In this document: piece after piece, positions 37,583-40,477 of the stretch
Position numbering within the stretch: position 1 is the stretch's first letter
Layout of the letters: every line of letters starts with the position of its first letter
Origin: a phage
Length of the DNA: 64,000 bases
Sequence record: PZ386948.1
Direction: 5' to 3' (one strand)
Position numbers and translations under genes: made by a program
Notes under the pieces: generated by a model
Databases searched by the model: none
The model's input: only the letters and a program-made list of their open reading frames with translations
Told to the model about the DNA's origin: nothing

Positions 37583-38098
37583 TTAAAGCAAATTAAACAT
37601 TTTAACGGTCGGCAAAACAATTTCTTTTTCTATATAAGAGTATTTAACACTCTCAACTACACGCAAAAAATCATAATCATAATACTCAGAAGCATTACCT
37701 AAAATATTAATAAGTCCTTCAAGCACTTTATTACCATTCACAAAGAATAAGTCAAATACGCGTTCTTCGTCTTCTTCGGATTTATTACCAAGGTCAACTT
37801 CTATATCAAAGACCTTTTTAATGAATTCTGGATAAAGTTGTTCTGAGAACAGTCCTTCAACCAAGTATTCATAAATAAAAAGCGATTGCTCGCTGAACAA
37901 GCCATTACCACAATAACGTTCAGCTTTAGTACTAGAATGTCTACTTTTAAACTTCTTTAAAAGATATTGAAATTGTAAGATTTCATGCTCTTCTACGCCA
38001 AACAGTGTTTTAGTTTTATAGTTGTCACCATCATTTTCCCAGGTAGTGACATCAATTACGTAACCCTGTGGAATTGTAGTACCTAAACAAATATTCAT
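37583..38098 (-). CDS. Hypothetical protein
   Basis: 171-aa ORF. Confidence 0.5.
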   Translation of the reverse strand: MNICLGTTIPQGYVIDVTTWENDGDNYKTKTLFGVEEHEILQFQYLLKKFKSRHSSTKAERYCGNGLFSEQSLFIYEYLVEGLFSEQLYPEFIKKVFDIEVDLGNKSEEDEERVFDLFFVNGNKVLEGLINILGNASEYYDYDFLRVVESVKYSYIEKEIVLPTVKMFNLL

Positions 38099-38388
38099 TT
38101 GCTCACCATATTAATGTAAGTATATTCAATACATTCAAGACCCAAAGGATTCTTGAAAATATCATATTCAAGAGGACCTTTTTCTGTTTCAATAAAGAAA
38201 TCAAAATTTACTGTATTAAATTTACGGTCTTCCTTCACTAATTTAACCTGAGAAGATGAACGGTCAATGTAAACCTTTTCAACTTCAAAACATGTTAAAA
38301 CGCCATAATCATCAATCAAGGCTTTAGCCGCGTCTTGATCATATTTATATCCATTTTCAATTGACGATACTTTAGCATAAAGAATCAT
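38095..38388 (-). CDS. Hypothetical protein
   Basis: 97-aa ORF. Confidence 0.5.
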   Translation of the reverse strand: MILYAKVSSIENGYKYDQDAAKALIDDYGVLTCFEVEKVYIDRSSSQVKLVKEDRKFNTVNFDFFIETEKGPLEYDIFKNPLGLECIEYTYINMVSK

Positions 38389-38390
38389 TA

Positions 38391-38771
38391 TCAGCCTTCA
38401 TCAACAATAGTATGAGTGTGGGCATTTACAATTTGCCACCAATCAAAGCGATTAGAACCACACATCGGTTTGTTTTCATTTTCTTTGATAATATCACGAA
38501 GTTCATCTTCGGTAGCGGCTTTCGCGATTAAATCAGCATATCCACCGCGAGGATAATAATTATCACCTGCAAAAAGTAAAAAGTTCGGTTTAATATTATT
38601 GAACTCTTCAAGAGTAATAACTTTTCCTGTCGGTTGAACAATCTCTACATATTTATATCCTAATTTTTGAGCAGCATCTACTGCTTCAAGCAAAGTATCA
38701 TGAGCCCATCCAATTTGACAACCTGGCTTTTCAGATGGATTAGCCTGATAATCCGCGTACACTTTATACAT
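38391..38771 (-). CDS. Hypothetical protein
   Basis: ATG at 38771 (MYKVYADYQ...); track start is further upstream. Confidence 0.5.
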   Translation of the reverse strand: MYKVYADYQANPSEKPGCQIGWAHDTLLEAVDAAQKLGYKYVEIVQPTGKVITLEEFNNIKPNFLLFAGDNYYPRGGYADLIAKAATEDELRDIIKENENKPMCGSNRFDWWQIVNAHTHTIVDEG

Positions 38772-38772
38772 T

Positions 38773-38958
38773 CTATTCACCTTTAGAAATTTTATCCATA
38801 ACGATAGCAATTAAACCAATTAAAAATGCTACTACAAGTGAAAAAACATTTTCTGCTGTAGTTAATAATCCGCATATAAATCCAACAAACATTGAAAAAC
38901 TAAAAGCAGAAGCAGAAATTGCAATAGCAACATTTCGAATTAATTCACAACGTTTCAT
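38773..38958 (-). CDS. Small membrane protein (two TM helices)
   Basis: ATG at 38958 (MKRCELIRNVAIAISASAFSFSMFVGFICGLL...); track extension is promoter sequence. Confidence 0.45.
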   Translation of the reverse strand: MKRCELIRNVAIAISASAFSFSMFVGFICGLLTTAENVFSLVVAFLIGLIAIVMDKISKGE

Positions 38959-38984
38959 TTTATTCTCCTCAGTAGCTGATAGGG

Positions 38985-39018
38985 TAATAGTATCACTACT
39001 AAAACCCAATGTAAACAA
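38985..39018 (-). promoter_or_regulatory. Early-promoter repeat (IP-array type)
   Basis: GTTTAC (39011-39016), 18-bp spacer, TACTAT; shares about 50 bp with copies at 39279, 39645 and 39975. Confidence 0.55.
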
Positions 39019-39019
39019 T

Positions 39020-39244
39020 TTATTCAACGCCAGCGGCTTTCAAAAGTTTCTTAAGATTGGCAACACCTTGAGCAGAAAATGTGACCTTGCCACCTTTTTC
39101 ACTGATAGAACCAACCAATTTAGCAAGTTTATCATTAGGAATTTTTTTAAAATCAGCCAATGTTCCATCAAAGGTTTTTGAAACAAAAGGCAGTTCGTCT
39201 TCGCGTCTTTTAGCTTCTACAATAAATTCTTGATATGTTTTCAT
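39020..39244 (-). CDS. Internal-protein-like protein (capsid-targeting sequence MKTYQEF)
   Basis: ATG at 39244 with RBS; N-terminus MKTYQEFIVEAKR resembles the T4 IP targeting sequence. Confidence 0.6.
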   Translation of the reverse strand: MKTYQEFIVEAKRREDELPFVSKTFDGTLADFKKIPNDKLAKLVGSISEKGGKVTFSAQGVANLKKLLKAAGVE

Positions 39245-39278
39245 TTTAGTTTCCATTTGAGTGTTTGTTTTGATAGGG

Positions 39279-39312
39279 TAATAGTATCACTACTAAAACC
39301 CAATGTAAACAA
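39279..39312 (-). promoter_or_regulatory. Early-promoter repeat (IP-array type)
   Basis: GTTTAC (39305-39310), 18-bp spacer, TACTAT (39281-39286). Confidence 0.55.
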
Positions 39313-39328
39313 CTTTGTGAAAAATTTA

Positions 39329-39616
39329 TTACAAAAGATTTTTAGCAATAATCTTGAGATGTGCCGCAGAAATGTGTTTAGCTTTAAACAACGCAGTTTC
39401 TTCAGCAGGAGAGATAACGATTGTAGCACCATCCTTTTTAGCAGACCACCCATCGCCTAGGTAAACAGTACCTTTGATTTCTTCGCCATCAACCAGACTA
39501 ATCATTGGTTTACCTTCTCGTCCTTTATTTGCTTTAATAACTTCAGAAGTAAGAGTAGCTTCGGTAATAGTAGAAACCGGGGTAGTTGTAGAAGTAAATT
39601 CTTTGAAAGTTTTCAT
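39329..39616 (-). CDS. ipI: Internal protein I-like
   Basis: 95 aa; N-terminal MKTFKEF targeting sequence with a likely ITE|A cleavage site; position next to 57B as ipI in T4. Confidence 0.65.
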   Translation of the reverse strand: MKTFKEFTSTTTPVSTITEATLTSEVIKANKGREGKPMISLVDGEEIKGTVYLGDGWSAKKDGATIVISPAEETALFKAKHISAAHLKIIAKNLL

Positions 39617-39644
39617 TTTATTTTCCTAATTAATTTTGATAGGG

Positions 39645-39678
39645 TAATAGTATCACAACTAAAACCCTATGTAAACAA
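39645..39678 (-). promoter_or_regulatory. Early-promoter repeat (IP-array type)
   Basis: GTTTAC (39671-39676), TACTAT (39647-39652), flanked by inverted repeat ataggg/ccctat. Confidence 0.55.
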
Positions 39679-39688
39679 CTTTGTGAAA

Positions 39689-39946
39689 TTATTTTAAATC
39701 TTCTAATCGTTTCTTCATCTTAGAACCGTTCTTAGCGATTTCGCCTGCATCAGAGCATAATGCTAAAAGCGCTTTAACTTTAGTTTGGTCTCCTTTAAAA
39801 GATGAAGGATCAACAGCAGCAGCAAGTTCTTTAATACGAGAGAAAAGACGCTCAGCTTCAGCTAAAGCCATTCCAAGCTTTACTTCCATACCGCGGGAAG
39901 ATTCAGTAATAGTAGTTTTTGTAGCAAACTCTTTGAAAGTTTTCAT
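39689..39946 (-). CDS. Internal-protein-like protein (MKTFKEF)
   Basis: 85 aa; first ~7 codons and upstream leader near-identical to the ipI-like gene. Confidence 0.6.
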   Translation of the reverse strand: MKTFKEFATKTTITESSRGMEVKLGMALAEAERLFSRIKELAAAVDPSSFKGDQTKVKALLALCSDAGEIAKNGSKMKKRLEDLK

Positions 39947-39974
39947 TTTATTTTCCTAATTAATTTTGATGAGG

Positions 39975-40008
39975 TAATAGTATCACTACCTCATCAGTAT
40001 GTAAACAA
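39975..40008 (-). promoter_or_regulatory. Early-promoter repeat (IP-array type)
   Basis: GTTTAC (40001-40006), TACTAT (39977-39982), flanked by perfect 9-bp inverted repeat gatgaggta/tacctcatc. Confidence 0.55.
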
Positions 40009-40018
40009 CTTTGTGAAA

Positions 40019-40477
40019 TTATTTTAAATCGTCTGCCCAATCAACTTTAAGAGGTTCTTTATATTCACGATCTAATACGACCGGAATTTGTACATCACCG
40101 CTAAATGATAAGGGCCCAACATTATAAGACAATGTTATATGCGGTGTGTAATCATCAAAATCGTGTGTAGCACCTAGTGCCCGCGCATACATATGTCGAC
40201 AGCGCAGATATTCAGAATCTAGCACAAGTACAAGAGTCGATCCATCTTGTGTTTTCCACACTTCTAAATGTCCAGAAGAAGCTACTTCAAAACTTCCACT
40301 CGATGGAACATACGGAACATTTACTCTTGAATAACATATAGTTGAATGAATTTTTTCTCTAGGAACTGGATTAGGAACACGTAAAGAGCGCTGGAGTTCT
40401 TCCAGCGCGTCAAGTGTTAATTCTGAAAACTTAGCTGCTACATAAAGACCCGTTGAAAAGTCTTTAAATTCCATCAT
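40019..40477 (-). CDS. 57B: gp57B (Acb1-family anti-CBASS phosphodiesterase by position and size)
   Basis: 152 aa, between ipI and 57A as T4 57B; function inferred from published T4 Acb1 = gp57B. Confidence 0.65.

Follow-up and report, generated by a model that had tools for sequence, protein, structure and literature searches.

A probable three-layer accessory locus at the ipI/57B position of a T4-like phage

The 64,000-nucleotide stretch of phage DNA analysed here (sequence record PZ386948.1; hereafter the window) harbors, between positions 37583 and 40477, a block of eight genes which includes 57B (acb1) and ipI, the products of which counteract host defences in phage T4. The presence of these two genes raises the question of how far a counter-defence role extends to their neighbours. 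An earlier note, made from the sequence alone, had proposed that the adjoining internal protein (Ip)-like genes, a small protein with two transmembrane helices and three uncharacterised open reading frames (ORFs) are reasonable candidates for further inhibitors. The block is quite probably a three-layer accessory locus of the T4 ipI/57B type, comprising acb1, three Ip cassettes and a coupled early operon, and the proposal is considered below for each layer in turn.

The window derives from a Tequatrovirus and matches Shigella phage CM8 with 100% identity over positions 37400-40231; the larger region 35001-43257 equals the CM8 record after removal of a 974-bp tandem duplication that is seen only in that record. 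All the features described in the earlier note are present where it had placed them, and all eight genes lie on the minus strand, in the transcription order 57B, ip5, ipI, ip8, trna.4, trna.3, trna.2 and ORF171, followed by a HNH homing endonuclease gene and a tRNA cluster. Hundreds of homologs of each gene could be identified in phage genomes and the gene order is syntenic with that of T4, indicating that these are real genes rather than chance ORFs. Pfam, NCBIfam and PADLOC scans covered all eight proteins and yielded matches only for Acb1 and IpI.

Acb1 and the internal protein cassettes

The translated 57B product matches the Acb1 family of Pfam (PF23474; Bitscore: 201 against a cutoff of 27; e-value: 7.5e-60) and the crystallised Acb1 protein (PDB 7T26; e-value: 1e-61), and shares 151 of 152 residues (99.3%) with T4 57B, bearing out the Acb1-type assignment made in the earlier note. 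The catalytic HxT/HxT tetrad described by Hobbs et al. (PMC9117128) is intact by direct residue count (H44-S-T46, H113-I-T115). Cleavage of the signals of CBASS, an antiphage signalling system based on cyclic oligonucleotides, is established for the T4 protein, from which the protein encoded here differs by one residue. As such, it would be expected to function as a metal-independent 2H phosphodiesterase which cleaves CBASS cyclic oligonucleotides, so that the host effector would never be switched on. In a transposon screen (HIDEN-SEQ preprint, bioRxiv 10.1101/2025.11.20.689424), T4 acb1 is conditionally required on a CBASS-expressing host, and the preprint's supplementary tables give a log2 fold change (log2FC) of -1.56 (adjusted p: 0.003) on strain CFT073 and of +0.13 on strain CFE299 for insertions in the acb1 gene of phage Bas37. 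For a comparison of the locus spanning 26 loci, 25 IMG/VR loci encoding 57B relatives were fetched. Conservation within the neighbourhood is highest for 57B, with a median pairwise identity of 79% across the 26 loci. The essential neighbouring genes are less conserved over the same loci, with values of 54% for gene 1, which encodes a deoxynucleoside monophosphate kinase, and 58% for 57A.

Three Ip genes, ip5, ipI and ip8, are located between 57B and trna.4, a position which corresponds to the ipI slot of T-even genomes. The known anti-restriction protein IPI, reported in the earlier note, is indeed encoded here: the IpI precursor is 100% identical to T4 IpI (Pfam IPI_T4; e-value: 7e-54), and its mature form of 76 amino acids is identical to PDB 2JUB. 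IpI thus represents an established inhibitor, by virtue of its identity to the characterised T4 protein. The additional Ip-like genes are likewise assigned to phage internal protein families of the PHROG database, with Ip5 belonging to an internal head protein family (phrog_3499; e-value: 1e-48) and Ip8 to an internal virion protein family (phrog_8765; e-value: 2e-25). Sequence and profile searches of the PDB with Ip5 and Ip8 returned no match below an e-value of 0.06. IPI* was found in 292 phage records, Ip5 in 495 (269 at 80% identity or above) and Ip8 in 108, mostly T4-like phages of Klebsiella and Escherichia.

A strict capsid-targeting motif, MK(T/S)(Y/F)(K/Q)(E/D)F, occurs in the window only in these three proteins, as MKTYQEF in Ip8 and MKTFKEF in both IpI and Ip5. 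Prohead-protease motifs of the form (L/I/V)-x-E are found at residue 10 of Ip8 (IVE↓A), residue 19 of IpI (ITE↓A) and residue 15 of Ip5 (ITE↓S), and the IpI site agrees with the first residue of PDB 2JUB. The capsid-targeting sequence (CTS) is predicted to be MKTYQEFIVE↓A in Ip8, leaving a mature protein of 64 amino acids with an isoelectric point (pI) of 9.8, and MKTFKEFATKTTITE↓S in Ip5, leaving 70 amino acids with a pI of 9.5, so that the predicted mature forms of Ip8, IpI and Ip5 comprise 64, 76 and 70 residues with pI values of 9.0 to 9.8. T4 carries a second Ip locus, with ipII and ipIII at the denV-e position. In the window, denV (29711-30127) and the lysozyme gene e (30187-30681, minus strand) are adjacent, and this second locus is therefore empty, with all three strict-motif Ip genes of the phage located next to 57B.

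The Ip genes share their upstream regions as well as their N-terminal signals. The element GTTTACA-N13-GTGATACTATTACC was found in four copies by a pattern search of the 64 kb, against none expected, with one copy upstream of each Ip gene and a fourth upstream of the trna.4 operon (Table 1). The four copies can be aligned over 60-90 nucleotides, including the ribosome-binding site, and fit the form of the T4 early promoter annotated in a related genome. In each copy a hairpin encloses the -10 region; the stem of the ip5 copy is unlike the other three in sequence, with the pairing retained. A role for the hairpins as intrinsic terminators was rejected, as no U-tract follows them. Within the Ip array, promoter and signal-coding sequence together form a 123-bp repeat with 88% identity, and we suggest that it is probably on these repeats of promoter and CTS that cassette exchange acts, giving rise to the hypervariability of the slot.

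This hypervariability is evident from the comparison of the 26 loci. The frame 1-57A-57B-[slot]-trna.4-trna.3-trna.2 is found again in loci with as little as 74% identity in 57B, and the slot between 57B and trna.4 holds between zero and three CTS-bearing genes, which belong to 16 mutually unrelated families. Among the matches listed for the three-cassette array, all three cassettes are contiguous only in the CM8 records. In the other listed matches, 80-85% of the query is covered by several separate segments; among these phiD1 was checked, and it harbors a single Ip gene.

Table 1. Genes and early-promoter cassettes of the ipI/57B locus in the window (dG, hairpin free energy in kcal/mol)
Feature	Coordinates	Strand	Basis or hairpin values
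57B (acb1), 2H-phosphoesterase gene directed against CBASS cyclic oligonucleotide signals	40019-40477	-	Pfam, PDB, T4 identity
ip5, predicted internal protein precursor of 85 amino acids	39689-39946	-	phrog_3499, CTS, cleavage motif
ipI, precursor of IPI* (GmrS/GmrD type IV inhibitor)	39329-39616	-	T4 identity, 2JUB, Pfam
ip8, predicted internal protein precursor of 74 amino acids	39020-39244	-	phrog_8765, CTS, cleavage motif
trna.4, 61 amino acids, two predicted transmembrane helices	38773-38958	-	T4 identity, hydropathy, phrog_1692
trna.3, 126 amino acids, acidic, two-domain	38391-38771	-	T4 match
trna.2, 97 amino acids, acidic	38095-38388	-	T4 identity, phrog_2023
ORF171, 171 amino acids, acidic, absent from T4	37583-38098	-	
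Early-promoter cassette 1, upstream of ip5, GTTTACA...GATACTAT	39973-40006	-	hairpin dG -17.4, z -4.6
Early-promoter cassette 2, upstream of ipI	39643-39676	-	hairpin dG -14.0, z -3.5
Early-promoter cassette 3, upstream of ip8	39277-39310	-	hairpin dG -15.2, z -3.4
Early-promoter cassette 4, upstream of the trna.4 operon	38983-39016	-	hairpin dG -11.7, z -2.0

Function of Ip5 and Ip8

Each Ip cassette would thus combine a separate early promoter with hairpin, a separate ribosome-binding site and a CTS at the N-terminus of the protein. The small basic proteins would be taken up by the prohead, where the prohead protease would cleave them after (L/I)-x-E, and would be injected together with the DNA, thus reaching the host nucleases ahead of any phage gene expression. 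Virion presence and injection are known for T4 IpI. IPI* would block GmrS/GmrD, as has been shown for the T4 protein of identical sequence, and Ip5 and Ip8 would act stoichiometrically against other modification-dependent (type IV) enzymes.

Several precedents bear on this function. T4 Ip1, Ip2 and Ip3 each inhibit one GmrSD-type enzyme, without cross-protection (Silas et al. 2025, PMC12373910), ipIII is required on strain ECOR17 (Srikant et al., PMC9391042), and Bas37_0260, which is located at the ipI slot, is described in the HIDEN-SEQ preprint as a new McrBC inhibitor. The adjacent Bas37_0261 is an Ip5 ortholog, with 84 of 85 residues identical to Ip5 of the window (MZ501089 locus). In the supplementary tables of the preprint, insertions in Bas37_0261 are depleted four-fold on CFT073 relative to K-12 (log2FC: -2.09; adjusted p: <1e-5, listed as 0.00000) and show a log2FC of -0.01 on CFE299. 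The passages of the preprint that were searched make no mention of Bas37_0261, and refer to 57B/Acb1 only in the T4 CBASS experiment. A GmrSD homolog, c5421, is present in CFT073 (PMC4437046). The six window protein sequences searched for in the supplements of Silas et al. 2025 were absent there.

The insertion counts for the K-12 strain BW25113 are normal for Bas37_0261 and Bas37_0262 (263 and 292, respectively) and amount to 8.4 within Bas37_0260. As insertions in the two genes upstream of Bas37_0260 are tolerated normally, the cassettes appear to be independently expressed, which fits one promoter per cassette. Polarity was accordingly rejected as the cause of the CFT073 effect of the Ip5 ortholog, given that insertions upstream of Bas37_0260 do not produce the Bas37_0260 phenotype on BW25113.

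Taken together, the four characterised Ip proteins and the CFT073 signal argue that both Ip5 and Ip8 are probably injected anti-restriction proteins. By analogy with these precedents, there is a good likelihood that Ip5 inhibits a specific type IV enzyme, and for Ip8 the same role is somewhat favoured. The target of Ip5 would be a CFT073 defence, possibly its GmrSD. Alternatively, Ip5 and Ip8 may represent generic internal proteins which condense or neutralise the packaged DNA and have no specific host target, as might be expected of small mature proteins with pI values of 9.5-9.8 that are non-essential on K-12. However, all four of the internal proteins tested to date have specific type IV targets, the occurrence of 16 unrelated families in the slot is unexpected for a generic packing function, and the Ip5 ortholog is required in a strain-specific manner on CFT073. 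A packing role is thus quite improbable, and the reading of Ip5 and Ip8 as specific inhibitors is retained here. The earlier reading of the block as a counter-defence neighbourhood, extending to its Ip-like genes, is therefore upheld, given that Acb1 and IpI are in essence the characterised T4 proteins, that the tested Ips are all anti-restriction proteins and that the Ip5 ortholog shows the CFT073 signal.

Two further observations concern the Ip genes of this phage and its relatives. In the CM8 record (NC_054939, 5859-7806, corresponding to window positions 39258-40231), the C-terminal half of 57B, ip5 and ipI are duplicated, and the second ipI copy ends in AAHFKINDRILL instead of AAHLKIIAKNLL, with all eight nucleotide differences confined to 24 bp. 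Microhomology was rejected as the origin of this duplication, as none is found at the junction; the duplication could reflect a genuine amplification with a second IpI allele, or an artefact of assembly. Furthermore, an ORF located on the other side of the tRNA cluster (34389-34862, minus strand) encodes a protein of 157 amino acids which starts with MKSYTQFLNE↓AVLNE↓A, a looser CTS-like signal which includes two protease-type motifs. A T4 late promoter of canonical form, TATAAATA, is located just upstream (34899-34906, minus strand). This protein belongs to phrog_2280 and, judging from its position and length, is apparently the counterpart of Bas37_0244, which is non-essential in the transposon data. 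Its sequence suggests that it may be a fourth, larger internal protein.

The trna.4-ORF171 operon

The genes trna.4, trna.3, trna.2 and ORF171 are separated by gaps of 1-2 nucleotides, with the start codon of ORF171 overlapping the stop codon of trna.2 (ATGA), and the fourth promoter copy lies upstream. Trna.4, the small protein with two transmembrane helices of the earlier note, is 100% identical to its T4 counterpart, belongs to phrog_1692 and shows hydrophobic helices at approximately residues 9-31 and 35-55; Pfam, NCBIfam and PADLOC returned nothing significant for it. The three previously uncharacterised ORFs in 37583-38771 correspond to Trna.3, which shares 57% overall identity with T4 Trna.3, Trna.2, which is 94.5% identical to T4 Trna.2 (phrog_2023), and ORF171. 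These three proteins are acidic, with pI values of 4.6-4.8. T4 trna.2, trna.3 and trna.4, as well as Bas37_0257 to Bas37_0259, are non-essential on K-12 in the transposon data, and one T4 comparison table shows no conditional effect for the three T4 genes. The fourth promoter would drive a translationally coupled operon encoding one membrane protein and three acidic cytoplasmic proteins. Our best guess is that these products, which are dispensable in the laboratory and conserved across T4-like genera, may be early host-interaction factors acting by protein binding; none of the four genes is a structural or metabolic gene, which the earlier note had named as the finding that would speak against its proposal.

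Trna.3 is predicted to fold into two small α/β domains (AlphaFold2; mean predicted local distance difference test: 83; predicted template modelling score: 0.52), for which no meaningful neighbour was found in the PDB. Its C-terminal domain is conserved (NFLLFAGDNYYPxGGY...FDWWQIVNA; median identity: 81%) and its N-terminal domain is variable (median identity: 47%). Among phages in which 57B is at least 97% identical, the N-terminal domain is bimodal, with identities of either 90% and above or 35-38%, suggesting that two old alleles circulate between near-identical backbones. T4 carries the other allele, with an N-terminal domain only 34% identical to that of the window. Exchange of the Trna.3 alleles can be seen in both Tequatrovirus- and Mosigvirus-type loci, with the C-terminal domain at least 89% identical (19 related loci and the window). 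As for Trna.2, a pull-down with active DRT1 enriched two phage proteins, of which T4 Trna.2 is one (PMC13275509). Homologs of Trna.3 and Trna.2 bear the precomputed Pfam assignments PF26894 and PF27001, and our own Pfam scan gave no match for either protein. PDB sequence and profile searches with ORF171, Trna.2 and Trna.3 returned nothing below an e-value of 0.06, and no literature on the function of trna.3 or trna.4 was found. Within the operon, Trna.3, with its swapped N-terminal alleles, and Trna.2, with its DRT1 pull-down match, appear most likely to touch host immunity.

ORF171 homologs are present in 584 phage records (Escherichia, Klebsiella, Aeromonas, Enterobacter and others) and absent from T4 and Bas37. 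A profile search retrieved at least 1000 clusters at 50% identity, 468 of which have e-values below 1e-10, and among the best 150 family matches nearly all are stand-alone proteins of 118-200 amino acids. The family is characterised by an invariant motif, TTWENDGDxYxT...GN...RVxES: residues G12, W20, E21, D23, D25, F50 and R146 are invariant, and N22, G64 and N65 nearly so, across 34 sequences sharing 22-38% identity with ORF171. A Pfam scan of these 34 diverse relatives yielded no match. The fold of ORF171 is confidently predicted and has no match in the PDB, and a structure search of BFVD retrieved only uncharacterised phage proteins.

The genomic context of ORF171 raises the alternative that the operon, and ORF171 above all, serves the tRNA cluster through tRNA maturation, repair or protection, or in a take-over of translation. 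In 14 of the 14 T4-like loci checked, an ORF171 homolog is located at the tRNA cluster (before it in nine, after it in three and inside it in two), an adjacency which is kept even where the position relative to 57B and trna.2-4 differs. The T4 gene names likewise reflect tRNA linkage, and a distant homolog (P0014) is found near an RNA ligase 1 gene. Conversely, ORF171 homologs on three non-T4 contigs (L030, L034 and L036) have no tRNA gene within 6-8 kb, T4 possesses a tRNA cluster without ORF171, no RNA-binding or nucleotidyl-transfer fold was detected, and the adjacency could represent inherited synteny with local rearrangement. A tRNA-related function for the operon is therefore considered improbable. 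The tRNA cluster of the window itself (35615-37483, minus strand) comprises six genes (Arg, Ile(CAU), Thr, Ser, Gly and Leu), with a GIY-YIG homing endonuclease gene (36048-36698, minus strand) at the position of T4 tRNA-Pro and the HNH homing endonuclease gene (36875-37483, minus strand) at that of T4 tRNA-Gln.

The homolog P0014, of 200 amino acids, is encoded at positions 8001-8603 of L034, a 77.6-kb metagenomic phage contig, where it is flanked by NMNAT/Nudix and cREC_REC genes on the one side and an NAMPT gene on the other, resembling a NARP2-like pair for the reconstitution of nicotinamide adenine dinucleotide (NAD+). Genes for a PIF1/Dda-like helicase, RNA ligase 1, an HNH nuclease, a metallophosphatase and NADAR are found further on, and the region (5528-16000) looks like an anti-defence island. 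The tRNA adjacency and the NAD+ pair each constitute a single line of association. That the ORF171 family represents a new type of counter-defence, either as a binder of or enzyme acting on small-molecule or nucleic-acid immune signals or as a protector of phage tRNAs, is a speculative proposition, to which we assign a low probability.

The full claim of the earlier note would make the entire 2.9 kb a single anti-defence island in which trna.4, trna.3, trna.2 and ORF171 are all dedicated inhibitors. In keeping with this, the operon adjoins proven anti-defence genes and shares their early promoter type, its genes are non-essential, and its three cytoplasmic products are small and acidic (pI 4.6-4.8). 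T4 Trna.2 co-purifies with DRT1, the swapping of Trna.3 N-terminal alleles is as expected under host-driven diversification, and a distant ORF171 homolog lies inside the NARP2-like pair, near RNA ligase and NADAR genes. However, the operon is syntenic across genera, and in the comparison of gene turnover it is the Ip slot which shows replacement of families, whereas trna.4, trna.2 and the C-terminal domain of Trna.3 are syntenic and conserved; turnover is partial for the Trna.3 N-terminal domain, through the allele swap, and for ORF171, found in 15 of the 26 loci.

A number of observations weigh both against this claim and against the host-interaction role that we favour for the operon. Trna.2, Trna.4 and ORF171 diverge at approximately the pace of the neighbouring essential genes. 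The Bas37 orthologs of trna.2, trna.3 and trna.4 have log2FC values of approximately zero on CFT073 and CFE299 in the two Bas37 tables covered. ORF171, Trna.2 and Trna.3 have no match, among anti-defence proteins or otherwise, in sequence searches of Pfam, NCBIfam, PADLOC and the PDB. Structure prediction, one of the checks proposed in the earlier note, gave folds for ORF171 and Trna.3 which are unlike the solved anti-defence proteins, and the DRT1-Trna.2 match was not followed up by its authors (PMC13275509). Other points count against the Ip layer of the reading. The experimental input for Ip5 is one screen value, on which the authors of the screen did not remark, and the role of Ip8 is read from its sequence. 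No copy of the canonical late promoter (TATAAATA) is found directly upstream of the Ip genes; near the array, such promoters occur only inside trna.3, trna.2 and gene 1, and the nearest one upstream of the Ip genes on the same strand is that inside gene 1 (41060-41067). For packaging, the late supply of Ip proteins may rely on gene 1 read-through or on protein synthesised early.

With no likeness in sequence to known anti-defence proteins, nor in fold for ORF171 and Trna.3, and no hypervariability, the anti-defence idea for the operon rests mostly on association, and this part of the earlier proposal was not substantiated beyond that. A single island of dedicated inhibitors is unlikely. That at least one of the operon products targets host immunity is a possibility to be taken seriously, although the balance tilts against it. 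The three-layer locus, with acb1, the Ip cassettes and the coupled early operon, remains the preferred explanation.

Relation to known loci and implications

The T4 trna.2-57A locus (NC_000866, 72.6-74.6 kb) has the same gene order and strand as that of the window, with identities of 97% for 57A and 98% for gp1. T4 harbors only ipI between 57B and trna.4, whereas the window adds ip5 between 57B and ipI and ip8 between ipI and trna.4, and tRNA-Gln directly follows trna.2 in T4, where ORF171 and then the HNH homing endonuclease gene are found in the window. The locus of Bas37 (KarlGJung, MZ501089) is similarly arranged as 57B-Ip5-[second Ip]-trna.4-trna.3-trna.2-homing endonuclease. It differs in encoding the anti-McrBC protein Bas37_0260, of 77 amino acids, where the window has IpI and Ip8, and in lacking ORF171; Bas37_0260 is unrelated to Ip8 and IpI beyond the CTS. 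T4 Ip2 and Ip3 resemble Ip5 and Ip8 in carrying a CTS and belong to a packaged and injected class with one inhibitor per nuclease subtype (PMC12373910), of which Ip5 and Ip8 would also be members. They differ in their location at the second locus, denV-e, and share only the N-terminal signal with Ip5 and Ip8. The anti-defence islands described by Silas et al. (bioRxiv 10.1101/2023.04.06.535777) likewise combine a variable slot with conserved flanks and small, non-essential, horizontally exchanged genes, a counter-defence role being proven for several of them. Only the Ip slot fits this description, however, as the trna.4-ORF171 operon lies in the conserved flank, with the exception of the Trna.3 N-terminal domain.

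The ipI/57B locus has been recognised as a polymorphic site since the 1990s (Repoila et al. 1994, as cited in PMC12373910). The Acb1 and IpI proteins are already known, and Ip5 and Ip8 are named family members. New here are the anatomy of the four-copy promoter-hairpin cassettes, the CFT073 signal of Ip5 in published supplementary data, the swap of Trna.3 N-terminal alleles, and, for the ORF171 family, its size, its invariant motif and its orphan fold. Current understanding is not overturned by any of these elements.

In wild and clinical E. coli, T-even phages meet a main barrier in type IV enzymes of the GmrSD and McrBC types, and no known internal protein disarms more than one type IV subtype. 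A phage which stacks three Ip genes in one slot is as such a natural source of new inhibitor-nuclease pairs, which would be useful for the host-range engineering of therapeutic T4-like phages. Should the trna.4-ORF171 operon prove to be anti-defence, it would add widely conserved factors, with ORF171 representing a family of more than 1000 sequence clusters. Even without further novelty, the locus constitutes a textbook counter-defence hot spot built from exchangeable promoter-plus-signal cassettes.

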